A stretch of 62,274 nucleotides of DNA from a virus. The notes under the pieces are model-generated. The model was not told the DNA's origin. It saw nothing but the letters and a program-made list of their open reading frames with translations, and searched no databases. The stretch lies in the IMG/VR virus record IMGVR_UViG_3300037419_000445. One strand, 5' to 3'. The translations under genes and the position numbers were made by a program. Within the stretch, counting starts at the first letter, position 1. Each line of letters opens with the position of its first letter. Below are positions 3,442 through 41,262 of the stretch, in pieces.

Positions 3442-4065
3442 ATGGCACGTAAGACCTTTATCGTTGGCATACATCTTGCCGATTACATTCAGCACAACCC
3501 GCAGACAGCAATGCCTGCAAATAAATTCTACAAGGCTATGAAGGAGCTTACTGGCAAGCGCAAAAAGACCGACGCAGACCACGAGGCAATCGCCAATATT
3601 GAATACCACGCCGGCCTGTACATGAACGGCGCTGGCCAGGTTGTCTTGCCGAGTACGCAGTTTGAAGCAGCTATTGCGGAGGGCGCAAAAGTTTCAAAGG
3701 AAGGCAAGATTTGCCTTTCCTCAACCTTCGTTGAAGGCGACGCTGTTCTCTCATACGACGGCGGTCCTCTCTCGCTCGATGAACTACTCGCTAGTGAATC
3801 CCATCGCTTAGATGCGCTGGTTCGTGTCGGTATGGCGAAAACGATGCGGCGCCGACCTTATTTCACCAACGCTTGCGCTGATTTCCGAGTGTCTCTCGAT
3901 ACCGAGCAGGCAAACGCGGCGCAGTTGCGTCGTTGGGTGTTCGATGCGCTCAACATCAAGGGAATTGGAGATTGGCGCCCGCGACATGGTCGCGGTGAGA
4001 TTACGAAGTTCGAAGAGGCGCCTGTGTTGGTTACTGCGACAGCAGCGATTGCTCAAGCGGCATAA
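3442..4065 (+). CDS. hypothetical protein
   Basis: 207-aa ORF with an AAGGAGAG RBS. Confidence 0.6.
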   Translation: MARKTFIVGIHLADYIQHNPQTAMPANKFYKAMKELTGKRKKTDADHEAIANIEYHAGLYMNGAGQVVLPSTQFEAAIAEGAKVSKEGKICLSSTFVEGDAVLSYDGGPLSLDELLASESHRLDALVRVGMAKTMRRRPYFTNACADFRVSLDTEQANAAQLRRWVFDALNIKGIGDWRPRHGRGEITKFEEAPVLVTATAAIAQAA

Positions 4066-4082
4066 GTTCTTCTGTGTGGCTG

Positions 4083-4395
4083 GGCGAGGATTTCACGGCA
4101 CGGCAAGTACCCGGTTAGGCGTGGCCCGGTCGGGCGATCCCCGGCACGGCTAGGCAAGGATTTCGTGGTTTGGGTTGACAGAACACGGCACGGCCCGGTT
4201 TGGCACTGCGGGGAATGGCAAGGATTTTGTGGCCCGGCCAGTTTCGGAACGGCACGTCTTGGAATGGCTAGGAATGGCTAGGCATGGACATCGAGGCTCG
4301 GTGGGTTGGGGTTTGGTCCGGTCATGTTCGGTTCGGTTGGGCTAGATCGGGCACGGCAAGTCTAGGCACGATTCGGTTCGGCAAGGATTTCACGG
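4083..4395. repeat. Array of four 16-bp repeats GGC(A/G)AGGATTT(C/T)(A/G)(C/T)GG plus GGCACGGC sub-repeats in a 400-bp non-coding gap
   Basis: Copies at 4083-4098, 4153-4168, 4217-4232 and 4380-4395. GGCACGGCAAGT occurs at 4097-4108 and 4350-4361. Tandem GGAATGGCTA x2 at 4261-4280. Confidence 0.8.
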
Positions 4396-4420
4396 CAATA
4401 GCGGCGCGATAGCGCTTCAC

Positions 4421-4444
4421 AAAAGAAAAACCGCGCTTGCGCGG
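4421..4444 (-). terminator. Possible minus-strand intrinsic terminator
   Basis: The minus strand reads CCGCGcaagCGCGG followed by TTTTTCTTTT. On the plus strand the A-tract precedes the stem, so the orientation is minus. Confidence 0.3.
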
Positions 4445-4465
4445 CAATGGCGGAGCTTTCTCCAA

Positions 4466-4720
4466 ATGACACCACTTGAACAGACGCTCTACGCAATGAC
4501 CCGATTCAAAATGGAAGACGAAGTTGAGATCGCCGGCGAATTGATCGGAACCGTTACCGGGATTCAGGTCACCACGAGCGGTGAGGATACGTACAGGGTT
4601 TTCTATTTCGACAACGCCGAAAACCCGAAGGAAGAGTGGATTCGCGACTCCATGCTTTCGGAGGTCGACGACGAAGAAAGCAACGTGATTCCGTTTCCAG
4701 TTAGCCGCACGCGGCATTGA
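4466..4720 (+). CDS. hypothetical acidic protein
   Basis: 84-aa ORF with a GGAG RBS. Confidence 0.6.
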   Translation: MTPLEQTLYAMTRFKMEDEVEIAGELIGTVTGIQVTTSGEDTYRVFYFDNAENPKEEWIRDSMLSEVDDEESNVIPFPVSRTRH

Positions 4721-25930: not shown

Positions 25931-26302
25931 GTGGCTAGGCCACGAATTCCAAAAGCCAAGGCAAGGCTAGAAGCGCGCGATAAAGTAAACGCTGGTCGTT
26001 TCAAGAACCGCAAAGAGCCGACGTCGCCTGACGAGATTGGCGACCCGCCCGAGTGGATGGGAGGCGAACAGCGGTTAGCTTGGCGCACTTTCCAAAAAGA
26101 AATTCCATGGCTCAACGGTTCGCACCGCGGCCTTGTTGAAATTGCAACGATCATTAGAGCTCGGCTCACGGCCGGCGAAGAAGTCGGAATCCAGGCACTA
26201 AATCTTCTTCGACAATGCCTTGGCTCGATGGGCGCTACGCCGTCCGACGCAAGCAAGGTGAGCCTCCCAGAGGATGACGAAGAAGACGACATCCTCGACT
26301 GA
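25931..26302 (+). CDS. terS: terminase small subunit (P27 family)
   Basis: PPEWMGGEQRLAWRTFQKEIPWLNGSHRGLVEIATIIRARL with an acidic C-terminus. GTG start. Confidence 0.75.
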   Translation: MARPRIPKAKARLEARDKVNAGRFKNRKEPTSPDEIGDPPEWMGGEQRLAWRTFQKEIPWLNGSHRGLVEIATIIRARLTAGEEVGIQALNLLRQCLGSMGATPSDASKVSLPEDDEEDDILD

Positions 26303-28157
26303 TGCGCTAGACCGTGTTTCGGCATACGCGCAAGGTGTAATTGATGGACGTATCGTTGCTGGCCCACACGTCCGAAATGCTTGCCGTCGTCATTTCGACG
26401 ATTTGGCCAGCGCTTCCGAGCGCGGACTGCATTGGGACGATGCTGCAGCCGTTCGCGTCTTCAGGTTCTTCGAAGAGAAGCTAAAACTATCCGAAGGCCA
26501 GTTTGAGAATGCCCCGTTTGTCCTGCAGCCGATGCAGGAGTTTATTCTCGGCTCGTTGTTTGGATGGAAGCGGGCTGACGGGACTAGACGCTTCCGCCGG
26601 GCCTACATAGAGGCTGGCAAGGGTTGCGGTAAGTCGCCTCTGGTTGGCGGCATCGGTCTTTACGGCCTGACTGCTGATAACGAGGCTGGCGCACAGATCT
26701 ACAGCGCCGCGGCGACGAAAGATCAGGCGGGAATTCTATTCCGCGACGCCTGCAAGATGGTCAGGCAGTCGCCTGAACTTGATAAGCGGCTGAATTTTAG
26801 CGGCGGGTTTGCGCGAGAATTCAACATCGCGCACCACAAGTCGCAGTCGTTCTTTCGTCCGATGTCCCGTGAGGCCGGCAAGACTGGCTCTGGTTTGCGG
26901 CCTCACTTCGCGCTCTGCGACGAGGTGCATGAGCATCCCGGTCCTGAGATTATGCGTATGCTGGAAGCGGGCTTTAAGTTCCGCAGGCAGCCGCTTCTAG
27001 TCATGATTACCAACTCTGGCAGCGATCGGCTGTCGGTATGTTGGAAAGAGCATGAGATGGCCTGCGCAGTTGCCGCGGGCACCCAGACGCCGGACGAGGT
27101 TTACGAGTACGTCGGCGAAACGTGGGAAGGCTCAGACGAATATTTCGCGTATGTTTGCGCGCTCGACAAGGACGACGACCCGCTAGAGGATCCGTCCTGC
27201 TGGGTTAAAACCAACCCACTGTTGGGTATTACAGTCACGAAGGAATACATTGCGTCGCAGGTTGCGTTCGCGAGGAACTTCCCGAGCGATGCACCTGGCG
27301 TTTTGAGGTTGTACTTTTGCGTTTGGACTGACGCTCACACGGCGTGGATGCCTCGTAAGACTGTCGAATCCGTGATGAAGGACTTCGACCTGGAATCGCA
27401 TAAAGGCAAGCCGGTTTTCCTTGGGATCGATCTTTCGTCGCACAAGGACATGACTTGCGTGGCGTATGTTGCACCAACTGGCCACAAAGAGGTTATCCGG
27501 CCAGACGGTAGCGTGTTTCTGGCGCCTACGTTTGATGCTTGGGTGGATTCGTTCACGCCATCCGATACGTTGAAGCAGCGAGCGGATGAGGATAAGGCGC
27601 CTTATCTGCAATGGGTTGATGGAAAATATCTAAAGCCAATCCCCGGCGAGCGCATCCGATACGATTACGTTGCGTATGACGTCGCTCAGGCCAGCCGACA
27701 GTTCGATATCAAGGCCGTTGCTTACGACAATTATGCGTTCGCTGAGTTTCGCGAAGAGTGCGGCAAGCTTGGATTAGAACTTACCTACCGCGACCATCCG
27801 CAAGGCGGTTATCGCCGTAAGAAGCCCAACGAAGAACTTGTTGAGCAGGCGAAAGCCGAAGGGTTGCCAGAGCCAGGTGGTTTGTGGATGCCAGGCTCGA
27901 TCAGGGAATTAGAATCCCTGATTATTGATGGCCGCATTCGTCTCCGCAGCAATCCAGTCTTGATGACCGCTCTTATGGCCGCGGCTTTCAGCGTGCCTGA
28001 TGCGGTTGGTAACAAATACCTCGTCAAGGACAAGTCGCACCGTCGAATAGACGCCGCTATCGCACTTTGTATGGCTGTGGGCGCCGCGGTTGATGGTGCT
28101 ACAGAATCCGGCACCATGGAAGATTTCGTCAACAATATCGTTTCCGTAACTTGGTAG
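26274..28157 (+). CDS. terL: terminase large subunit
   Basis: The ATPase has RRAYIEAGKGCGKS and FALCDEVHEH. A nuclease half follows. 627 aa, positioned after terS. Confidence 0.9.
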   Translation: MTKKTTSSTDALDRVSAYAQGVIDGRIVAGPHVRNACRRHFDDLASASERGLHWDDAAAVRVFRFFEEKLKLSEGQFENAPFVLQPMQEFILGSLFGWKRADGTRRFRRAYIEAGKGCGKSPLVGGIGLYGLTADNEAGAQIYSAAATKDQAGILFRDACKMVRQSPELDKRLNFSGGFAREFNIAHHKSQSFFRPMSREAGKTGSGLRPHFALCDEVHEHPGPEIMRMLEAGFKFRRQPLLVMITNSGSDRLSVCWKEHEMACAVAAGTQTPDEVYEYVGETWEGSDEYFAYVCALDKDDDPLEDPSCWVKTNPLLGITVTKEYIASQVAFARNFPSDAPGVLRLYFCVWTDAHTAWMPRKTVESVMKDFDLESHKGKPVFLGIDLSSHKDMTCVAYVAPTGHKEVIRPDGSVFLAPTFDAWVDSFTPSDTLKQRADEDKAPYLQWVDGKYLKPIPGERIRYDYVAYDVAQASRQFDIKAVAYDNYAFAEFREECGKLGLELTYRDHPQGGYRRKKPNEELVEQAKAEGLPEPGGLWMPGSIRELESLIIDGRIRLRSNPVLMTALMAAAFSVPDAVGNKYLVKDKSHRRIDAAIALCMAVGAAVDGATESGTMEDFVNNIVSVTW

Positions 28158-28167
28158 CTCGATAAAT

Positions 28168-29463
28168 ATGGGTCTTTTCGATGGATGGTTCAGCAAAACT
28201 ATCGACCTAAATGCGTCTAGCGAGCCGTTTTGGCGCGGATTTTTTGGTTCCGGTAGTACATCCGGTGAAGTCGTCACATTCGACAAGGCCCTGCAACTCG
28301 ATGCTGTATGGGCGTGCATAAACCTAGTTAGTAATGCTGTCGGGACGTTGCCTTGTGTTGTGTATGGCGATGACGGAGTTACACCGGCAAAAGACGACGA
28401 CCTGTATGGTCTTTTGCACGATTTACCAAACTATGACGACACTGCGCCAGAGTTCTGGACGATGGTCGCCTTCTGTCTGTGCCTAGACGGAAACTTCTTT
28501 GCGGAAATTAAGCGTTCTGGCGGGCGAATTATTGCGTTAAATCCGCTGCATCCACTCGCCGTTCAGGTTCGTAGGGATCCGCAAAAAGGCTTTGCGCGCT
28601 ATTACGACTATACAGAGCGCTATTACGAGCAGGCGTCTGTTGCCAAGCGACGCATTGAAGAGAAGGACATGTTCCACGTCCGCGGCCAGCTAATGCCGCA
28701 GTGTGACAGGGGACTTTCTCCGATTGCATTCGAAAGAAACTCGCTAGGTAATGCGATTTCTGGTGAGAAAACCGCCGGCAAGATGTTCAAGAACGGCTTG
28801 ATGTCGTCCTTGATTGTCAGTTCAGACCAAATTCTTCAGGCTCCGCAGCGCAAACAGATTGCTGATACGCTTACGCAGTTCGCGGGCGCTGACAAAGCTG
28901 GCGGCGTTACGGTTCTTGAGGCCGGGTTTAAGCCTTATCCGATGTCGATTAAGCCATCGGACGCGCAGATGTTGGAGTCGCGTCAGTACAGCGTCGAGCA
29001 GATTTGCCGCATTTTCGGTGTGCCTCCGGTGATGATTGGCCACGCGGCGAACGGAACGACGACGTGGGGCAGCGGAATTGAGCAGTTAATTCTGCAATTC
29101 AGCAAAACATGCCTTCTCCCAATGCTGACTCGCATTGAGGCGGCGATTTATCGGGATTTGTTGACACCGGCAACGCGCAAGACGCGGACGGTAAAGTTCA
29201 ACCTTGATAAATTCCTTGAAGGCGACAGCGTTGCGCGGGCCACGTTCCTCACGAAAATGTCTGACAGCGGCATTTACACGAAGAACGAAGCACGAGCTTA
29301 CGAGAATAAGCCCCCTATGGACGGCGGCGATAATCTCATCGTCAACGGGGCGATGACGAGGCTGGATAAGTTGGGCGAAGTGCCAGTTGCACCGCTTCCG
29401 CAGCCACCAGCAGCAAATACCAACGAGAAGCCGGTGCCTGCAGCGCCGAAGAAAGCCGCGTAG
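28168..29463 (+). CDS. portal protein (HK97 family)
   Basis: ALQLDAVWACINLVSNAVGTLP...QICRIFGVPPVMIG. The C-tail has the variant AANTNEKP. Confidence 0.9.
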   Translation: MGLFDGWFSKTIDLNASSEPFWRGFFGSGSTSGEVVTFDKALQLDAVWACINLVSNAVGTLPCVVYGDDGVTPAKDDDLYGLLHDLPNYDDTAPEFWTMVAFCLCLDGNFFAEIKRSGGRIIALNPLHPLAVQVRRDPQKGFARYYDYTERYYEQASVAKRRIEEKDMFHVRGQLMPQCDRGLSPIAFERNSLGNAISGEKTAGKMFKNGLMSSLIVSSDQILQAPQRKQIADTLTQFAGADKAGGVTVLEAGFKPYPMSIKPSDAQMLESRQYSVEQICRIFGVPPVMIGHAANGTTTWGSGIEQLILQFSKTCLLPMLTRIEAAIYRDLLTPATRKTRTVKFNLDKFLEGDSVARATFLTKMSDSGIYTKNEARAYENKPPMDGGDNLIVNGAMTRLDKLGEVPVAPLPQPPAANTNEKPVPAAPKKAA

Positions 29464-29505: not shown

Positions 29506-30624
29506 ATGAATTATCGGCACGTTCTGTCGGCTTTTGCGGCCGAACCTTGGGCAATGCAGCCGGAAAAGCTAGATTCGCTTTGCCGTTTCATTGAGTTCAA
29601 GGCCAACGGCGGCGAATACTCGGCGGAAGAAATTGCCGCAAGAGTGGGGCAGAAGCGCGATCTGCAAGCGAGTGATGCTCCAGCCGGTTCATCCGTTGCC
29701 GTGATTCCGGTGTACGGCGTACTTTCTCAGCGCATGAACATGATGTCGGAGATTTCCGGCGGCATGTCGTACCAGCTTTTGGGCCAGCAGATTGCCGCGG
29801 CGCTTGCCAGCGATGACGTCGCACACGTTGTGCTTGACATTGATAGCCCCGGCGGAGCCGTTCCCGGCGCTCAGGAGCTTGTGTCCGAGATTTTGGCACT
29901 GCGCGGTGGCGACAAGAAGATTATCGCACAGGTGAACGCGCTTGCGGCGTCTGCGGCCTATTGGATTGCATCAGCGGCCGACGAAATCGTTGTAACGCCA
30001 TCTGGCCGTGCAGGTTCTATCGGCGTTTATACGGTGCACGAGGATTTGTCCGAGATGCTGAAGAAGGAGGGCGTTAAGCTCACCTATATCAGTGCCGGCA
30101 AGTACAAAGTTGAAGGCAACGAGACGGAGCCACTGTCTGACGCCGCGAAAAAGCAAATTCAGTCGGGTGTTGATCGTTCCTACAAGGCATTTGTCGACGG
30201 TGTAGCGGCTGGTAGGGGCGTTACCGCGGCATTCGTTGAAGACAATTTCGGGCAGGGCAGGGTATTCGGCGCCGAAGAGCTAGTTAAGCGTGGCATGGCC
30301 GACAGTGTTGGTACTTTGAACGACACGCTGGCTCGTCTTGGCGCAGACACGACGCCTGAATCAGTGAAGAAAATCAAGATTGCGAATGCTTCGCGCGCAG
30401 AAGCGGCCACTTTGATGGTTGCGAAGATGCGAGCGGGCGAACCAATCACCAAGAGAGAATTTGAGAACGGCCTCAAGGGTCTTGTTGGCTGTTCGAATGC
30501 AGAGGCGGAGCGCGCCGCACGGCTCTACCTCAAAGATGGTCAGGGGGAACCTGACGACGGCGGTAAGGCGGCTTTGGCCGCCATTGAGCGTGTTTTGGCT
30601 GAAGCCAAGGCATTCAGCGCCTAA
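29506..30624 (+). CDS. S49-family (SppA/ClpP-like) prohead protease
   Basis: VVLDIDSPGGAVPGAQEL...NALAASAAYWIASAADEIVVTPSGRAGSIGV. Confidence 0.85.
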   Translation: MNYRHVLSAFAAEPWAMQPEKLDSLCRFIEFKANGGEYSAEEIAARVGQKRDLQASDAPAGSSVAVIPVYGVLSQRMNMMSEISGGMSYQLLGQQIAAALASDDVAHVVLDIDSPGGAVPGAQELVSEILALRGGDKKIIAQVNALAASAAYWIASAADEIVVTPSGRAGSIGVYTVHEDLSEMLKKEGVKLTYISAGKYKVEGNETEPLSDAAKKQIQSGVDRSYKAFVDGVAAGRGVTAAFVEDNFGQGRVFGAEELVKRGMADSVGTLNDTLARLGADTTPESVKKIKIANASRAEAATLMVAKMRAGEPITKREFENGLKGLVGCSNAEAERAARLYLKDGQGEPDDGGKAALAAIERVLAEAKAFSA

Positions 30625-30660
30625 CGGCGCATTCCCCCAGACTATCTAGGATATTTCATA

Positions 30661-31881
30661 ATGACTGACGTTCTTGCCGAGAAAATCGGCGAACTTGGTA
30701 ATTCGCTGGCCTCCATCAAAGAGCAGGTTGGCAACCTTGGTTCTGACTTCACCGCCAAGCTCGAAAAGGCCGGTGAGGTTTCTGCTGAACTGAAGGAAAA
30801 GACCGACAAGGCGCTTTCTGAACTTGGTGAGGCTGTTACTCGCCTCGGCGAGCTTGAGAAGCGCGCCGCGCGTGAGAAGGACACCCCGCAGGCTGGTAAG
30901 GTTATGGACCTCGGCGACCATCTGGTTGCTTCCGAGCAGTTCAAGGCGACCGATATGACGGGCGGCTGGCGTGGCGCGATCCGTGTTGGCGTTGAGCGTG
31001 CTGACATCACTTCGGCTGACACCTCTGTTGGCGCAGGCCGTTCGGCGGGCACGTCGTTGGTTCCCGGCGCTCGCGTCCCCGGCATCGTCACACCTCCGCA
31101 GCGCAAGTTGACCATTCGTGACTTGATCGCACCAGGCCAGACGGCGTCCAGCAACGTCGAATTCGTCAAGGAAACGGGCTTCACCAACAACGCCCGTCCC
31201 GTGACGGAAGGCCAGACCAAGCCGAAGTCTGACATCACGTTCAACATGGCGTCTGCACCTGTTCGCACGATCGCCCATATCTTCAAGGCATCGCGCCAGA
31301 TCCTTGACGATGCTCCTGGTCTTGCGAGCTACATCAATGCTCGTGGTACCTACGGTCTGAAGTTCGTTGAAGAAACTCAGCTTCTGACTGGCAACGGCGC
31401 TGGCCAGAACCTGAATGGTATCGTGCCGCAGGCGACTGCTTACGCGCCGTCCTTCAACGCTGCCGATGAGCAGGCAATCGATCGCCTGCGTCTTGCACTG
31501 TTGCAGGTTATTTTGGCGAACTATCCGGCGTCGGGTTTCGTTCTCAATCCGGTTGATTGGGCGCGCATTGAACTGACCAAGGATACGCAGGGACGCTACA
31601 TTGTTGGTAACGCTGCGTCGCCGATTGGACCGTCGTTGTGGAACCTTCCGGTTGTTGAGTCGCAGGCAATGACGTCTGGTGAGTTCATGACCGGTGCGTT
31701 CAATCTTGGTGCCCAGGTGTTCGACCGTATGGGTGTTGAGGTTCTTCTGTCGACCGAGAACTCGGACGATTTCGAGAAGAACATGTGCACCATTCGCGTC
31801 GAAGAGCGCATTGCCCTCGCGGTGTATCGCCCTGAGAGCTTCGTCGCCGGCGATATTGCCACCATGACGACCGCTGCCTAA
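30661..31881 (+). CDS. major capsid protein (HK97 fold) with an N-terminal coiled-coil delta domain
   Basis: TIRDLIAPGQTASSNVEFVKETGFTNNARPVTEGQTKPKSD...VEERIALAVYRPESFV. Confidence 0.9.
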   Translation: MTDVLAEKIGELGNSLASIKEQVGNLGSDFTAKLEKAGEVSAELKEKTDKALSELGEAVTRLGELEKRAAREKDTPQAGKVMDLGDHLVASEQFKATDMTGGWRGAIRVGVERADITSADTSVGAGRSAGTSLVPGARVPGIVTPPQRKLTIRDLIAPGQTASSNVEFVKETGFTNNARPVTEGQTKPKSDITFNMASAPVRTIAHIFKASRQILDDAPGLASYINARGTYGLKFVEETQLLTGNGAGQNLNGIVPQATAYAPSFNAADEQAIDRLRLALLQVILANYPASGFVLNPVDWARIELTKDTQGRYIVGNAASPIGPSLWNLPVVESQAMTSGEFMTGAFNLGAQVFDRMGVEVLLSTENSDDFEKNMCTIRVEERIALAVYRPESFVAGDIATMTTAA

Positions 31882-31888
31882 GTAAAAA

Positions 31889-31916
31889 TGTGGTGGGTGC
31901 TTAGGTGCCCACCACA
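31889..31916 (+). other. Stem-loop directly after the capsid gene
   Basis: TGTGGTGGGTGC-ttag-GTGCCCACCACA forms a 12-bp stem with two G-U pairs. No U-tract follows, so it is a possible attenuator or RNA-stability element. Confidence 0.35.
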
Positions 31917-31937
31917 CCACTTCCTGTTCGGGGCAAA

Positions 31938-32354
31938 ATGAAAATACGCGCATTAAAAACTACGACTGGATTACCGAGAGGTAGTGTCGGAGATGTAGAT
32001 GAAGGCGTTGGGAAAGAACTTATTGCCCTAGGTTACGCAATCGAAGTTTTGCCTCTTGAGAAGCAGGAGGCGGCCTCTTTAGTTGCCGATAATGACAACG
32101 ACCCTTTCGTAGCCGCGCACCAGAATGGTTCCCAGACTGGCGCGGATGCACAGCAGTCATCGTTGCCGGCGGACCAAGTGCAAAAGACGTTGACCTGTCC
32201 GCCGTCCGAGGACGAAGAGACGCAAACGGACGACCAGTTAAAGTCCTCGTCATCAACGATGGATTCAGGCTCGCCCCGTGGGCAGACGCACTCTATGCCT
32301 GCGACCACGACTGGTGGAAAGCGCGGCAGGGGGCGACCTCGTTCGAAGGGCTAA
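31938..32354 (+). CDS. small head-module protein (zero-frame product). Only about the first 57 aa look genuinely coding.
   Basis: MKIRALKTTTGLPRGSVGDVDEGVGKELIALGYAIEVLP resembles the common small ORF after capsid genes. After ADNDNDPF (32085-32108) the frame becomes low-complexity. Confidence 0.45.
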   Translation: MKIRALKTTTGLPRGSVGDVDEGVGKELIALGYAIEVLPLEKQEAASLVADNDNDPFVAAHQNGSQTGADAQQSSLPADQVQKTLTCPPSEDEETQTDDQLKSSSSTMDSGSPRGQTHSMPATTTGGKRGRGRPRSKG

Positions 32355-32782
32355 AGATTTCGCAAGATGGCTATGCGCCAGATCCAAAGTGGGGACTGCG
32401 GTTAGTAACCTTGGTCCGCAATGACGACACACTTCTGTTTAATCGCTTTGGCGAAATAGGGTGGGGCGGTAATGGCGGATTTCACGCTCTAAACATCGCC
32501 ATCCAGTTCGGCGCACGCCGCATTATCCTAGTCGGGTATGACATGCGTGTTGATCTTGGCACTCACTGGCACGGCGATCACGAAAACGGACTAAACAATC
32601 CTGTAGACGCAAACGTTTCTCGGTGGCGCCGAGTTTTGGATGCCCAGTCCGGATTGCTTGAGCGGTTAGGTGTTGAGGTGTTGAACGCCTCCCCAGTTAG
32701 CTCACTTCAAAAATACCCGAAGGTTGATTTTGCTGCGGCTGTGGGCCAAGCGACAGGAAACACGCTAAATGCCGCTGCTTGA
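32096..32782 (+). CDS. MptE/DUF115-like (Maf-type) Rossmann enzyme. The ORF has no in-frame ATG/GTG/TTG before 32411.
   Basis: Hand-translated frame: ...CTAVIVAGGPSAKDVDL...VLVINDGFRLAPWADALYACDHDWW...GWGGNGGFHALNIAIQFGARRIILVGYDM. The coding character clearly extends 105 codons upstream of the track start. Confidence 0.6.
   Translation, partial: QRPFRSRAPEWFPDWRGCTAVIVAGGPSAKDVDLSAVRGRRDANGRPVKVLVINDGFRLAPWADALYACDHDWWKARQGATSFEGLKISQDGYAPDPKWGLRLVTLVRNDDTLLFNRFGEIGWGGNGGFHALNIAIQFGARRIILVGYDMRVDLGTHWHGDHENGLNNPVDANVSRWRRVLDAQSGLLERLGVEVLNASPVSSLQKYPKVDFAAAVGQATGNTLNAAA
32102..32108 (+). promoter_or_regulatory. Candidate -1 programmed frameshift heptamer C_CCT_TTC with a downstream hairpin (32113-32145)
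   Basis: The X_XXY_YYZ pattern is in the zero frame of 31938-32354. The -1 frame opens at 32096, after a TGA at 32093-32095. The stem CCGCGC(ac)CAG/CTGGCGCGG starts 4 nt downstream. Confidence 0.45.
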
Positions 32783-33146
32783 TATCGACCTTGTTAAGTC
32801 GCACTTGCGCGTTGACGATACTGACTCCGACACGCTGATTGCGGCATATCAAGGAGCCGCAGAAGAGGCGATCGAGCAGTATCTTGACCGCGATATTTAC
32901 CTGGCCGGAACAAGTCCGACAACGGCAGACGGAATTGCATTAAATCCAGCGATTACTGCGGCGATCCTGTTGCTCATTGGCGATATGTATGCCGACCGTG
33001 AAACGGAAGATTCTGATTTCCAGCGGCGCGCGCCTCCTGGCCAAAACGCAGTATTTCCAAGACAGGTTCGCGCCTTGCTCGCGCCATACCGCGTTTGGCG
33101 AATTGTGAGCGAGAGCGCAAGCTATTATGGATACGACTGCATCTAA
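32769..33146 (+). CDS. head-tail connector (gp6-like / QLRG-type) protein
   Basis: LDIDLVKSHLRVDDTDSDTLIAAYQGAAEEAIEQYLDRDI. Confidence 0.65.
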   Translation: MPLLDIDLVKSHLRVDDTDSDTLIAAYQGAAEEAIEQYLDRDIYLAGTSPTTADGIALNPAITAAILLLIGDMYADRETEDSDFQRRAPPGQNAVFPRQVRALLAPYRVWRIVSESASYYGYDCI

Positions 33147-34089
33147 AAGGCCCCTGCTTCTGCAAGGAATGCACGGCCTAGGCGATAACCTCCATCAGCG
33201 CGCCGTTATACGCCAGTTGATGCAGCGCTACGATGTTACACTAGAGTCCTCGTGGGTTGCCCCGTATTACGACCTTATTGCGCAAGGCTTGCGCGTTATC
33301 AATAAGCCTACGGCACTTCGGACTCAGTCGAAGAACGCAAAGAGAGAGCGCGGAAAGTTTTCAACAGGTGTGCCGGCAGGCGCCAGAGTTCGCAAAGTCT
33401 GGTACGCGCCTCAAGAGGTTCGGCAGTGCCGCGGTGTTTTGGCCGCTATGTGCCTCAACTGCGATGTAAGTTACGACAGGGCCGACTTCCGAATTCAAGT
33501 GCCGGCAGAATGGGTAAATGCAGCGCGCGCCGCCGTTGGATATCCAGACAAGCCAATTCTGGTTTACCGCCCGCTGGTAGAGCGTACCGAATGGAATGGG
33601 TGCGCAGCACGTAACCCCGACCATGACGCTTACTATGCGTTGTTTAGGTCTGTGAGAGACAAATTCCACGTCGTTTCCATCGCGGACTTGGTGCCTGGTG
33701 TTGAGTGGACAGTAGGCCATGATGTTGAGGACGACCAAAGGTTCCACTTTGGCGAACTGCCTTTTGAGACTTTGGCTGGTCTGTTTTCTATTTCTGCATT
33801 GGCGCTTGCGGCGCCTGGGTTCGCGGTAATTCTGGCGCAGGCTGTAGAGACACCAGTTTGCGGTGTGTTTGGCTCCTACGAGGCAAGTTACAGCTTTAGC
33901 GGCGGCGCTCGCTGGTCCCCATACTTGGGGATTGACCCAAATACGCCATGCGACGACTTCAAGCACGATAATACCAAGGACAAGTCTATTGATATCGATG
34001 CAGCCAGCGCGAGACTTGCCGTATTCGCCGACGAAGCGATCAAGCGTTACAATCAACGCACCGAAGATAGACTTGGAAGGGCTGCATAA
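33127..34089 (+). CDS. GT9-like glycosyltransferase (heptosyltransferase family)
   Basis: The N-terminus is LLLQGMHGLGDNLHQRAVIRQL. The C-terminus AAPGFAVILAQAVETPVCGVFG parallels the GT9 DSGPMHLAAALGTPVVALFG. Confidence 0.55.
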   Translation: MDTTASKRPLLLQGMHGLGDNLHQRAVIRQLMQRYDVTLESSWVAPYYDLIAQGLRVINKPTALRTQSKNAKRERGKFSTGVPAGARVRKVWYAPQEVRQCRGVLAAMCLNCDVSYDRADFRIQVPAEWVNAARAAVGYPDKPILVYRPLVERTEWNGCAARNPDHDAYYALFRSVRDKFHVVSIADLVPGVEWTVGHDVEDDQRFHFGELPFETLAGLFSISALALAAPGFAVILAQAVETPVCGVFGSYEASYSFSGGARWSPYLGIDPNTPCDDFKHDNTKDKSIDIDAASARLAVFADEAIKRYNQRTEDRLGRAA

Positions 34090-34603
34090 GCGCTATGTCC
34101 ACCCCGGCGAGTTGGACGTTCTGGCTTACTTGCTAAAAGGCGCGCGTACCGTAGTTGAATTTGGATGTAACAACGGTCGCACTGCAGCCGCCATGCTGCG
34201 AAATGTATTAACGATCAATCGATACGTCGGCGTTGATGTGCCAGTTGGATACAAGTTCGCATGCAACGTGCAGCGTAACGAGACTCCACAGATTGCTGGT
34301 GAACTTGCGCTGTCGGACAGGCGATTTGAACTTGTTCTGCGAGAACGCGGTTCGTTCGACTTAACCGCAGAAGACCTACCAGCCTGCGATGCGGTTTTTA
34401 TCGATGGCGATCACAGCGAGCCGGGCGTTCTGAATGATTATGCATTGGCTAAAGCTATCGTTCGCCGTGGTGGCGTTATTGTTTTTCATGACGATAACGG
34501 TCTTAGCACTGTTGATGTTAGCCGCGTGCTTGATGATTTATGCGACGGCGGAGCGGACATTACGCACGTTGCTGGCACATGGCTTGCGTTTGAGAGGGTG
34601 TGA
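34073..34603 (+). CDS. class I SAM-dependent methyltransferase (Methyltransf_24-like)
   Basis: VVEFGCNNGRTAAAML and AVFIDGDHSEPGVLNDYALAKAIVRRGGVIVFHD. The start is uncertain (TTG at 34073 or 34112). The track ORF 33863-34603 overlaps the previous gene. Confidence 0.6.
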   Translation: MEGLHKRYVHPGELDVLAYLLKGARTVVEFGCNNGRTAAAMLRNVLTINRYVGVDVPVGYKFACNVQRNETPQIAGELALSDRRFELVLRERGSFDLTAEDLPACDAVFIDGDHSEPGVLNDYALAKAIVRRGGVIVFHDDNGLSTVDVSRVLDDLCDGGADITHVAGTWLAFERV

Positions 34604-34606
34604 GTA

Positions 34607-34957
34607 GTGCGCGCGGGTTCGTTAAACAAACGCGCTACGTTCCAGTCATTGGTAACAACGCCTGACGGTGCCGGCGGCTCGACCACTGGCTGGACAGACT
34701 ACGCCACGGTTTGGGCACAACTCTCGCCCGAGCGCGCGCGTGAGAAGATCCAGCAAGGCAGGATTGCCGACAAACAGGCAGGCGTGCTGCGCGTCCGGTC
34801 CAGCACTGCAACTAGATTGATCGATGGTACCTATCGCGTGCTGGTGGATGGCGTCCGTTATAACGTGCGCGCGCACATCAACCCGGATCAGCGCAACGAT
34901 ATGTTGGAGTTCGCGGTGGATACTGATGGCGAAGACCCATCAACAGACACACCGTAA
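34607..34957 (+). CDS. head-tail adaptor / head closure protein
   Basis: LNKRATFQSLVTTPDGAGGSTTGWTDYATVWAQLSP...YRVLVDGVRYNV. Confidence 0.7.
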   Translation: MRAGSLNKRATFQSLVTTPDGAGGSTTGWTDYATVWAQLSPERAREKIQQGRIADKQAGVLRVRSSTATRLIDGTYRVLVDGVRYNVRAHINPDQRNDMLEFAVDTDGEDPSTDTP

Positions 34958-35173
34958 CTACTTGTCGGCCGTCTTCTTGAAGCGCTGCAAAATGTAGTTC
35001 TCTGGCATAGTTGTGCTTCTTGCCAATATCAGTTTTGCGGCAGCATCGAAGCACGAAAGCCTTTGCGCGCCGTCCTTAATGCTTGCGCACGTAAGAACAT
35101 CCTCATCTGTCGAGGCGTGTGCTGCACCAAGACACGCAATCAATAAAGCTGAAGCCAGGAAAATCTTATTCAT
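34958..35173 (-). CDS. minus-strand moron encoding a small secreted protein or lipoprotein
   Basis: MNKIFLASALLIAC|LGAAHAS has a signal peptide with lipobox-like LIAC. It fills the gap between two plus-strand genes exactly, with its stop adjacent to 34957 and its ATG adjacent to 35174. Confidence 0.55.
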   Translation of the reverse strand: MNKIFLASALLIACLGAAHASTDEDVLTCASIKDGAQRLSCFDAAAKLILARSTTMPENYILQRFKKTADK

Positions 35174-35389
35174 ATGAAAACAATCCGTATGATTAAGGAT
35201 TACTCCTATCGTGCCACTCCTCGCGTATTCTTGCAATACATCGGTGGCTGCACCTATGAGCGAGTTCCAGAGGCTGCCGTTCGCGCCATTGTCGGTGCGG
35301 ATGCTGGAGAAGTGGTTGATCCAGTTGAACCAATTGAGGTTAACGCAGTAGGCGATAAGAGCTTCATTGAGCGGTTAATGGGCCAATGA
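35174..35389 (+). CDS. hypothetical protein
   Basis: 71-aa ORF. Confidence 0.45.
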   Translation: MKTIRMIKDYSYRATPRVFLQYIGGCTYERVPEAAVRAIVGADAGEVVDPVEPIEVNAVGDKSFIERLMGQ

Positions 35390-36831: not shown

Positions 36832-37265
36832 GTGCTGACGGTTCGATAGAACTTGTATGGGCTGACGAAACGCGGCGCTTTCGCATTGGCATCGGAGAAT
36901 TCCGCTCCCTTCAAGAAAGCGTAAATTCTAGGCGCGTCTTAATCGGGGCACAGCCAGTTGGTCCTGGTGGCCTGCTTGATCTTTTACGCACCAAAAATGC
37001 GTGGCCGGATGACGTTCGTGATGTGCTTAAGGCCGGCCTAATTGGCGGCGGTCTGGAGTTTCAAGAGGCAAATAAACTTCTGGTGCGTCATTTCGACGGG
37101 AAGCCACTTCTTGAGCATTCCAAGACGGCGTTTCCAGTGCTTCTCGCCGCTCTAGTCGGCGTTCCAGACGATGAGCCGTCAAAAAAAAAGACGGAAGCGA
37201 CAGTGACGACGGAGAAGACGGACCAATCCAATTCTCTGTCGTCTACGGAAACGGTGCAGCAATAG
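36828..37265 (+). CDS. tail assembly chaperone (G-like, zero-frame product)
   Basis: IELVWADETRRFRIGIGEFRSLQE is GTA-type TAC-like. It lies immediately upstream of the tape measure gene. Confidence 0.7.
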   Translation: MSADGSIELVWADETRRFRIGIGEFRSLQESVNSRRVLIGAQPVGPGGLLDLLRTKNAWPDDVRDVLKAGLIGGGLEFQEANKLLVRHFDGKPLLEHSKTAFPVLLAALVGVPDDEPSKKKTEATVTTEKTDQSNSLSSTETVQQ

Positions 37266-37411
37266 GCTTCACGCCAGAGCAGGTAGATAAGTGCTCTTTC
37301 TGGCAAATGCGCGCGTGTATTGCCGGTTACAATAAATCAAATAACGCTGAAGATGAGGTTAGACCTCCCAGCGATTCAGAATTCGACGATATGGTCGCGA
37401 GGCTAACTTAG
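36828..37411 (+). CDS. tail assembly chaperone -1 frameshift product (G-T-like)
   Basis: The slippery A_AAA_AAG lies at 37184-37190 within a run of nine A. The -1 frame is open from 37175 to the TAG at 37409-37411 and encodes ...IGFTPEQVDKCSFWQMRACIAGYNKS...DDMVARLT. Confidence 0.65.
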
Positions 37412-40151: not shown

Positions 40152-40804
40152 TGCGCGCAATCTCCTCAGAAAACTACGCAGCTCTACAGGACCGCCGCTT
40201 AGTTGCGCGAGACTTCATTTGGTTTATCGTCCGCGACCGCACAACCGGTGAGGCCGTTACTGACGGTTATTGGTCCGGCGCTGGTTTCATCACCACAGAC
40301 GTTATCGATCCGAACACTGGCGGCGTTGCCACGCGCTCGTTCAATGGCGCTGGCCAGCTTATCCAGATTTCCGATATCCCGCTTGTTTCGAACATCACTG
40401 TTCAGAATGTAACGATAAAGCTCAATCAGGTTGCAGACCACGTCAACGACCTTATCCGCAGCTACGATTGCAAGCAGGGCCAGGTTCAAATCTGGCGCGG
40501 TTTATTCGATCCGAACAGCAGGCAGTTGGTGTCGCCCGCACCTCCGCGGTTCTTTGGCTTTATCGACCAGATCGAAATTCTGACTCCAGCCGAGAACTCG
40601 GAAGGTGGCGTAACACTTACTTGCACTTCCCACACGCAGGAAATGACGCGGTACAATCCTGATACTCGCTCGGATGCCAGCCAAAGGTTGCGCGCCGCAA
40701 ACGACAATTTCTATCAGGACACAGCGACTATCGGCACCGCTCAGTTCTTCTGGGGACGCGCAAACGGCACCGTGCATACTACCTTTAACAAGAAGTTCGG
40801 ATGA
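40151..40804 (+). CDS. minor tail protein
   Basis: Assigned by position. The C-tail carries RAANDNFYQ (40697-40708). Confidence 0.45.
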   Translation: MRAISSENYAALQDRRLVARDFIWFIVRDRTTGEAVTDGYWSGAGFITTDVIDPNTGGVATRSFNGAGQLIQISDIPLVSNITVQNVTIKLNQVADHVNDLIRSYDCKQGQVQIWRGLFDPNSRQLVSPAPPRFFGFIDQIEILTPAENSEGGVTLTCTSHTQEMTRYNPDTRSDASQRLRAANDNFYQDTATIGTAQFFWGRANGTVHTTFNKKFG

Positions 40805-41262
40805 TCCGTCGCGGCCGACTATCTGACGCGCCGCGCGCTGTTGAGTTGCTGCGCGATAGCCGAACCGGTGCTGGCTTCCACAATCCGGACGGCGTGTCGG
40901 GCTTCGTGTTTCCGTTCGATCCTGACTATGCCGAGCGAATGTTCCTGCGCTATTTGGCCGGCGATCGTCTGCTTTGCTTAGTGCTTGATGTTGACGGTGT
41001 AGCGCAGGGCCTTCTGCTCGCTCACGCATACGAACATGAATTTGGCCCAGTGTGGCTCGCACAGGAACGTGTGTGGTGGATAGATCCAGCGCACAGGGGA
41101 ATCGCCGCAATCAAGATGCTCGACGCATATGATGATTGGTGGCGCAGCGAGGGCTGCTCGTTCGGTGGAATGGGTGGCATGGGCGAAGACCCAGCGGTTC
41201 GCAAACTCTACGAGCGGCGCGGATATCGCGTCGCAGAGACGCATTTTTTGAAGGCCGCCTAA
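40801..41262 (+). CDS. GNAT-family N-acetyltransferase inside the tail module
   Basis: RVWWIDPAHRGIAAIKMLDAYDDWW...VRKLYERRGYRV is the GNAT core. Confidence 0.6.
   Translation: MIRRGRLSDAPRAVELLRDSRTGAGFHNPDGVSGFVFPFDPDYAERMFLRYLAGDRLLCLVLDVDGVAQGLLLAHAYEHEFGPVWLAQERVWWIDPAHRGIAAIKMLDAYDDWWRSEGCSFGGMGGMGEDPAVRKLYERRGYRVAETHFLKAA

Follow-up and report, generated by a model that had tools for sequence, protein, structure and literature searches.

Probable glycan-building genes in the head-neck operon of an HK97-like phage, with a first enzyme that is probably made by −1 frameshifting

What do genes for sugar and methyl transfer do among the head and neck genes of a phage? The question is raised by a stretch of viral DNA of 62,274 nucleotides (IMG/VR record IMGVR_UViG_3300037419_000445; the whole stretch is referred to here as the window), which makes up almost all of a 66.7-kb phage record rated 100% complete. 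The source is a temperate, HK97-like phage of root-nodule-type bacteria, and the window belongs to an alphaproteobacterial clade. An earlier reading of these letters without database searches (the sequence-only reading) had noticed three enzyme genes between the major capsid gene and the head-tail adaptor, interrupted by one connector gene. The three open reading frames (ORFs) are present where that reading had placed them, on the plus strand, co-oriented and overlapping structural genes, and the gene between the first and second enzyme is indeed a connector, the adaptor Ad1. The interpretation favored here, with a probability of roughly 0.6, is that they form a late-expressed, glycan-building cassette of the head-neck operon, in which the first enzyme is produced by frameshifting and the acceptor is a virion protein. 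Its parts are as follows.

31938-32354, plus strand: small post-capsid ORF of 138 amino acids, taken as the zero frame
32102-32108, plus strand: candidate site of −1 slippage, C_CCT_TTC, read in the zero frame
32096-32782, plus strand: sialyltransferase-fold (DUF115/MptE-like) domain in the −1 frame, a stop-to-stop frame
32769-33146, plus strand: head-tail connector, adaptor Ad1, gp6-like (PF05135, E 1e-11; TIGR01560; phrog_40)
33127-34089, plus strand: GT-B glycosyltransferase with a GT9/TibC-like fold, 320 amino acids (AlphaFold, Foldseek)
33998-34603, plus strand: methyltransferase dependent on S-adenosylmethionine (SAM), Methyltransf_24 (PF13578, E 1.7e-13)

The first enzyme had been read as an ordinary gene at 32096-32782, which does not hold, as the interval is a stop-to-stop frame with no start codon before 32411. 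The frame opens at 32096, directly after a TAA-TGA pair (32090-32095), and contains no ATG, GTG or TTG from there to 32410; the first such codon, at 32411, is located inside the catalytic domain. Near-cognate initiation of the enzyme was considered and rejected, since the 14 codons between the TGA (32093-32095) and the conserved PEWFPDW motif include no NTG or ATN. The small ORF lies upstream, and the enzyme frame is −1 relative to it. Approximately the first 43 residues of the small ORF (31938-32066) form an N-domain (ND); a linker follows, and the remaining tail, which overlaps the enzyme frame, runs on for another 82 codons. Two codons after the TGA its zero frame contains C_CCT_TTC (32102-32108), an instance of the X_XXY_YYZ slip motif (PMC4066793, in which no slip efficiency was found for C_CCU_UUC). 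Slippage at this point would generate a predicted trans-frame product of 281 amino acids (31938-32108 joined to 32108-32779), with 57 residues of the small protein, ND and linker, followed by the enzyme beginning RSRAPEWFPDW; the junction peptide would be QEAASLVADNDNDPFR. Another route, in which an ATG at 32092 in the third frame is combined with a +1 slip at CUU_U, was rejected, because this ATG is not conserved (for example in L004) and the −1 heptamer is.

The arrangement recurs well beyond the window. About 107 enzyme loci were collected from genomes, IMG/VR and phage records, and hidden Markov models (HMMs) were built for the enzyme domain and for ND. Loci with ND immediately upstream of the enzyme show the −1 relation, except for two in which both parts are in frame; a +1 relation never occurs. 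The deduplicated enzyme tree of 92 rows includes 28 loci with ND and the −1 relation, 9 more without a start codon, 2 in-frame fusions and 52 standalone genes with a start of their own, and the frameshift state is spread over several of its deep lineages. The two natural ND-linker-enzyme ORFs (L012, 249 amino acids; L048, 268 amino acids) show that a fused ND-enzyme architecture is, as judged from these genes, viable. The standalone homologs begin with an ATG exactly at the start of the domain, as in L006 (MTKPEWWPSW), L023, L024, ORF010 of PAJU2 and PmgO of P1.

The slip motif is also kept. An in-frame C_CCT occurs within the permitted span of 20 codons in 25 of the 27 distinct frameshift-type loci (expected, 3.9%), and a full heptamer (C_CCT_TTN, A_AAC_CCT or G_GGC_CCT) in 17 of the 27 (expected, 3.7%); both expectations ignore the relatedness of the loci, the flanks of which differ widely, and CCT accounts for only 20% of the proline codons in these loci. 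Two known phages display the same organization, with the first enzyme likewise split over two annotated ORFs in a −1 relation and a canonical heptamer at the overlap. In both of these distant relatives the heptamer differs from that of the window but has the same place: it is an in-frame C_CCA_AAG where orf6.5 and orf7 of D3 overlap, and T_TTT_TTG in Psp6, three codons downstream of the opening of the −1 frame. In public phage records the site is mis-annotated as two genes or as a 5′-truncated gene, orf6.5/orf7 of D3 being an example. Because the start codon is missing, the −1 relation is constant, the slip motif is kept and natural in-frame fusions exist, a programmed −1 frameshift that yields the 281-residue fusion is likely on comparative sequence grounds. 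The predicted product is a recoding case of a new type, in which an enzyme, and not a structural extension, would be added to a head-module protein. Nearly all frameshift-type loci have a Shine-Dalgarno-like GGAGG or AGGAGG (32065-32070 in the window) about 11-36 nt before the slip site. It encodes QEAA or GEAA of the small protein and can pair into a hairpin (32049-32073) in the window; its spacing is too variable, so that it misfits the dnaX-type stimulator model.

The small protein weakly matches phrog_2616 and has 25 full-length homologs, all of them hypothetical. A profile search with ND across 1.84 billion proteins returned 540 clusters, nearly all of proteins of 45-135 amino acids with ND at residues 1-42; among the hits, one member reaches the Pfam threshold of DUF7302 and others match DUF7210, with a weak resemblance to the N-domain of the ribosomal protein L9. 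The ND topology in the AlphaFold model of L012 is β-β-α-β. One hit, P0263 (281 amino acids), joins ND in frame with a GT2 glycosyltransferase (PF00535, E 3e-16), and related loci contain many in-frame ND-GT2 genes directly after the capsid gene (L108-L185, among them L124 at 3995-4702, L157, L168 and L184). L116, L136 and L148 are organized differently: the ND ORF overlaps a GT2 frame in the +1 relation, and this frame probably starts with GTG or ATG at FVTCLCLT. Judged from the predicted proteins, ND thus occurs with two glycosyltransferase folds that are unrelated to each other but occupy one genomic position, and this pairing after the capsid gene is the strongest indirect support for a module that acts in the context of the head. 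Some further features of ND proteins can be mentioned. Among P0216, P0242 and P0173 there are small proteins with ND in two or three tandem copies, and one in which a C-terminal stretch is reminiscent of a helix motif that binds DNA. The C-terminus of many ND proteins is a basic tail rich in Lys, Ala, Glu and Pro.

By sequence, the first enzyme, the 32096-32782 protein, matches phrog_4603, "alpha-2,3-sialyltransferase," over its full length (E 7.2e-45, profile positions 1-173 of 178). Searches of the PDB by sequence, with single sequences and profiles of all three enzymes, gave nothing meaningful, and only the comparison of folds was informative. The fold was read from the AlphaFold model of the natural homolog L012 (58% identical; predicted local distance difference test score, pLDDT, 92.3), whose best match is the GT42 enzyme Cst-II (1ro8/1ro7; E 3e-4, probability 1.0, template-modelling (TM) score 0.49). 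Further matches are the Pasteurella multocida sialyltransferase, human ST8SiaIII and ST6GALNAC2, together with many viral MptE-like proteins; the top matches thus belong to four different sialyltransferase families, the best three at probabilities of 0.98-1.0. The homologs share the invariant motifs A.GPS, LYA.D..WW, G.D and HWHG.H, which argue for a predicted catalytic activity and not for scaffolding. Its GxGPS, D and His-rich motifs appear to resemble those of Cst-II. The sequence-only reading had assigned the protein to the MptE/DUF115 group and called it Maf-type. The first part stands as a likeness to DUF115; the second does not, since the catalytic domain has 224 amino acids, falls below the Pfam threshold, and is encoded in a phage head-neck operon, not in a flagellar context as are the Maf/DUF115 nonulosonic-acid transferases of flagellin. 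It also lacks what we take to be the multi-domain architecture of Maf proteins.

The second enzyme had been described as a GT9 heptosyltransferase-like protein, and this applies to the fold, with matches to TibC, WaaF and WaaC, but not to the family HMM. The protein matches phrog_6804 (function unknown; E 2e-28) and has 684 homologs. Its AlphaFold model (pLDDT 92.5) is a GT-B fold, for which Foldseek lists TibC as the best match (E 4.5e-10), followed by WaaF (1psw), the GT9 structure 3tov and WaaC (2h1h). TibC is the protein O-heptosyltransferase of an Escherichia coli autotransporter. The GT-B fold is common to the TibC/BAHT protein O-heptosyltransferases and to WaaC/WaaF, with TibC on top, although the TM-score is only about 0.5-0.6 and Pfam GT9 is not matched. 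The N-terminal GLGD signature (GxGD) that had been quoted for this protein is borne out, as G17, G19 and D20 are invariant in 25 homologs. A database gene call of 289 amino acids begins only at an internal Met and thereby lacks the invariant GxGD (region 33127-33219); homologs of 319-326 amino acids favor the start at 33127. The methyltransferase was correctly placed in Methyltransf_24 (PF13578; 51.8 bits, gathering threshold 26.3). Its proposed TTG start at 34073 is less convincing, given that homologs keep YSP..RSSVTI.APK.DL upstream of it, which makes the ATG at 33998 likelier; one homolog starts MSSAPKPALQYSP. With this start, the gene shares 92 nt with the end of the GT9-like gene. In the close relatives L003, L008, L009 and L011 the methyltransferase frame has no ATG before YSP..RSSVTI, only TTG codons, and overlaps the GT9-like gene by about 90 nt.

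How such enzymes might act together can be proposed as follows. A fraction of the ribosomes translating the small ORF would slip −1 at C_CCU_UUC and produce the ND-enzyme fusion, and the shared ND would bring the enzyme to the location of the small protein, after the logic of lambda G/GT or Gag-Pol. The phage record contains none of the nucleotide-sugar synthesis genes that were looked for (NeuB; CTP_transf_3, CMP-sugar synthetase; Epimerase; NTP_transferase, NDP-sugar pyrophosphorylase), so that the donor sugars must come from host pools. In each of three host genomes that contain related prophages, a KdsB-type gene is present and NeuB is absent; a nonulosonic-acid donor is therefore unlikely in such hosts, which leaves CMP-Kdo (cytidine monophosphate-3-deoxy-D-manno-octulosonic acid) as a candidate. 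Of these three hosts, only the one whose prophage has the complete trio contains a canonical GT9 gene, an association that is anecdotal at n = 3. The first enzyme might thus use CMP-Kdo or another CMP-ulosonic acid and the GT9/TibC-like enzyme might use ADP-heptose, with SAM as the presumptive donor of the methyltransferase. A sample of 201 genomes of the host order, taken for a link between cassette and sugar pathways, contained the first enzyme in only 2.

The acceptor would most likely be a virion protein, the leading candidate being the Ser/Thr-rich C-terminal tail of the capsid protein. In the window this tail, after the conserved RPxxFxxG, is DIATMTTAA. In a sample of 80 loci anchored on the major capsid protein (MCP), distinct tails have on average 2.8 Ser/Thr where the enzyme gene follows (n = 9) and 1.3 where it does not (n = 24), with a one-sided Mann-Whitney p of about 0.001 that is uncorrected for phylogeny. 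Where a capsid gene precedes an ND-GT2 gene, its product mostly has a conserved C-terminal tail of the [ST][ST]SPA type. The glycan half of the virion-glycosylation proposal made in the sequence-only reading agrees with two enzymes of glycosyltransferase fold and a SAM methyltransferase; the virion target is what we infer, and it is plausible, gaining indirect support from the ND-enzyme fusion, the ND-GT2 fusions and the capsid tails richer in Ser/Thr.

The first enzyme is found beside recognizable head or neck genes in most of 93 distinct loci, either after MCP and ND or after Ad1, which is the synteny that the sequence-only reading had suggested surveying; the trio itself is much less constant (see below). 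Uncharacterized homologs are encoded by D3 (orf6.5/7, 12 and 13), PAJU2 (ORF010-012), Psp6, phiCbK-like Caulobacter phages and P1/P7 (pmgO and pmgQ in P1). In D3, PAJU2, Psp6 and P1 (PmgO/PmgQ) the homologous enzymes, at roughly 30% identity, are located in head-neck or late morphogenetic operons. PAJU2 and P1 have standalone enzymes with their own start codons, unlike the window, which differs from all four in its alphaproteobacterial clade, its C_CCU_UUN slip site and its recognizable ND. The sequence-only reading knew of no description of virion glycosylation for this kind of gene set in a proteobacterial HK97-like phage. The gene set itself is not new to databases, where D3, PAJU2 and, in part, P1 carry homologs; the literature searched yielded no functional work on either the cassette or the frameshift.

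The surrounding genes form an HK97-type late operon, all co-oriented, at 26-42 kb (ORF calls, Pfam and PHROG). Its remaining landmarks are these.

26274-28157, plus strand: large terminase
28168-29463, plus strand: portal
29506-30624, plus strand: protease
30661-31881, plus strand: MCP, HK97 family (PF05065, E 4e-58; phrog_10)
31889-31916, plus strand: 12-bp hairpin directly 3′ of the capsid stop codon, without a U-tract
34607-34957, plus strand: head completion/closure protein Hc1, the downstream edge of the cassette (PF05521, E 1.4e-21; phrog_25)

Adjacent genes of the head-neck block overlap by 14-92 nt, and no promoter-like site was found on the plus strand within 30600-35300. The tight packing with structural genes in a late operon, as first described, is thereby confirmed. 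The hairpin behind the capsid gene is stable (−26.5 kcal/mol, z = −3.1), with equally good folding in 0 of 200 shuffles; it is possibly an element of mRNA stability or attenuation, or sets the ratio of capsid to downstream expression. Locus L003 has a similar sequence 3′ of its capsid gene. The sole reverse-strand ORF of the block (34958-35236, minus strand), between the head-closure gene and the next plus-strand gene, encodes a small protein with an N-terminus like a signal peptide or lipobox, MNKIFLASALLIACLGAAHA. Farther downstream, an ORF at 40801-41262 sits between the minor tail genes and a large J-like protein. The tail-assembly chaperone contains the canonical −1 slip site A_AAA_AAA_AAG (TCA AAA AAA AAG, 37181-37190), after which the −1 frame stays open as far as the tape-measure gene, which starts at 37411; because of this site, the phage appears to employ −1 frameshifting twice in its late operon. 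A nucleotide-level search of a phage collection gave no match to the window, and a PADLOC scan for defense systems returned merely a weak methyltransferase match.

Several results weigh against a frameshift-made, virion-directed glycan cassette. The trans-frame protein and the glycan are both predictions from sequences and models. The full heptamer is missing in 10 of the 27 frameshift-type loci. No conserved stimulatory RNA was found downstream: predicted folding there does not differ between 24 frameshift loci and 20 homologs without a frameshift (Mann-Whitney p = 0.9), and the hairpin downstream of the slip site in the window (32113-32145) is not significant (z = −1.46). The match of the first enzyme to Pfam PF01973 (MptE-like/DUF115) is local, covering residues 121-151 only, and with 20.6 bits it is below the gathering threshold of 34.6; the homolog L012 scores 19.2 bits. 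The 33127-34089 protein has no Pfam or NCBIfam match, with PF01075 (GT9) absent at E ≤ 0.1, and PF01075 has no match in the whole phage record. The shared motifs TGSQTG and SSSS in the zero-frame tail of the small protein are forced by the enzyme frame, which makes them uninformative on any function of the tail itself. The trio is complete in 13 of the 93 loci; 14 have the first enzyme with the methyltransferase only, 6 with the GT9-like enzyme only, and in 60 neither partner was detected. Because the first enzyme stands alone in these 60, in the stretch searched, the trio represents a variant within a wider system and not an obligate unit. The comparison of hosts covers three genomes only. 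The capsid-tail correlation is small and uncorrected for relatedness. Finally, the PAJU2 record labels ORF010 "structural protein," a label not traceable to data.

These points leave room for other explanations, of which the most serious is that the enzymes modify the host envelope (lipopolysaccharide (LPS) core, O-antigen or capsule) during lytic growth, for example against adsorption to debris or against rival phages. The classical role of enzymes with the GT9 fold is that of LPS heptosyltransferases, two of which, WaaC and WaaF, match the fold here; the probable donors are LPS precursors, and D3 is a serotype-converting phage. The known conversion genes of D3 are located elsewhere in its genome, however, and the genes considered here overlap structural genes in a late head-neck operon that is silent in lysogens. 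An envelope function also sits poorly with a first enzyme that is joined to a head-module protein domain in three genetic ways, with the partnership of the same domain with GT2, and with a protein heptosyltransferase, TibC, as the best fold match of the GT-B enzyme. An envelope target is therefore rather unlikely.

Lower still is the probability that no frameshift occurs and that the enzyme frame reflects an unusual independent start, a decaying pseudogene or an assembly error. In its favor, the search for a stimulatory structure found none, an in-frame GTG might serve as a start in D3 (L001, 5813), some ND-GT2 loci resemble simple overlapping genes with an ATG or GTG start, and C_CCU_UUC is, to our knowledge, not among the classic high-efficiency bacterial slip sites. 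Against an independent start, the interval between the TGA at 32093-32095 and the conserved motif contains no ATG, GTG, TTG, CTG or ATN, the relation is always −1, the ATG at 32092 is not conserved, and natural in-frame fusions are known from two loci. A pseudogene is hard to reconcile with a frame that is open and conserved in the 28 loci with ND upstream and in 9 more without a start codon. An assembly error cannot recur over independent assemblies with different flanking sequence; both of these last explanations are excluded by this recurrence. Slightly less probable again is a function unrelated to glycans, that is, a role in structure or assembly, an MptE-type pyrophosphokinase or the modification of phage DNA. 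The nearest Pfam family of the first enzyme is named for a pterin diphosphokinase, thiamin pyrophosphokinases are among its weaker fold matches, and the PAJU2 homolog bears the label of a structural protein; yet the best fold matches are the four sialyltransferase families, and the invariant GPS, D..WW and HWHGxH motifs favor catalysis over scaffolding. A DNA-directed role could draw on the PHROG match of the methyltransferase, labelled DNA methyltransferase (E 7e-7), and on the small ND proteins, which often have basic tails or an apparent DNA-binding motif, but no base-hypermodification genes adjoin the cassette, the second enzyme is unambiguously GT-B, and elsewhere ND pairs with a bona fide GT2 enzyme. 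A virion-directed glycan cassette with a frameshift-made first enzyme remains the preferred interpretation.

Set beside known systems, this interpretation has precedents for its parts. Only in some mycobacteriophages has virion glycosylation encoded by the phage been demonstrated experimentally. We know of no frameshift fusion in mycobacteriophage glycosylation. Che8 and other cluster F1 mycobacteriophages are reported to encode glycosyltransferases and to have glycans on the major capsid protein (Freeman et al. 2023, via PMC11256854); the glycosyltransferase genes lie near the 3′ genome end, and the glycan shield can alter antibody production and binding (PMC11256854). The Ser/Thr trend in the capsid tails considered here recalls the capsid glycosylation described for cluster F1 (PMC11256854). 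In the mycobacteriophages, glycosylation has been shown by experiment and the genes are outside the head module, whereas in the window the genes are within the head module and glycosylation is deduced from them; the hosts are different, and so probably are the enzyme families. As to the mode of expression, lambda G/GT, capsid 10A/10B of T3/T7 and the capsid of Lactobacillus phage A2 all use an X_XXY_YYZ slip to make a minor product that shares the N-terminus of the major one. The addition there is a structural C-terminal extension; in the window it would be an enzyme. The available part of a 2016 recoding review makes no mention of a glycosyltransferase or sialyltransferase.

A more far-reaching and distinctly speculative proposal, held with less confidence than the cassette itself, would extend this scheme to other phages. 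Capsid O-glycosylation would then be widespread in HK97-like proteobacterial phages, maybe including D3 and P1. ND, in its L9-N-domain-like DUF7302/DUF7210 form, would dock GT42-like or GT2 enzymes on the assembling head, either by fusion or by a −1 frameshift that sets the ratio of enzyme to adaptor, and CMP-Kdo and ADP-heptose would be used for a short methylated glycan on the capsid tail. The pairing of ND with two glycosyltransferase folds provides a testable handle on the large DUF7302/DUF7210 family of small proteins. If the cassette does glycosylate virions as in mycobacteriophages, glycosylation of the particle would be common among phages of Gram-negative bacteria, including classical laboratory phages, with implications for stability, the range of hosts, clearance by the immune system during phage therapy, and phage display.

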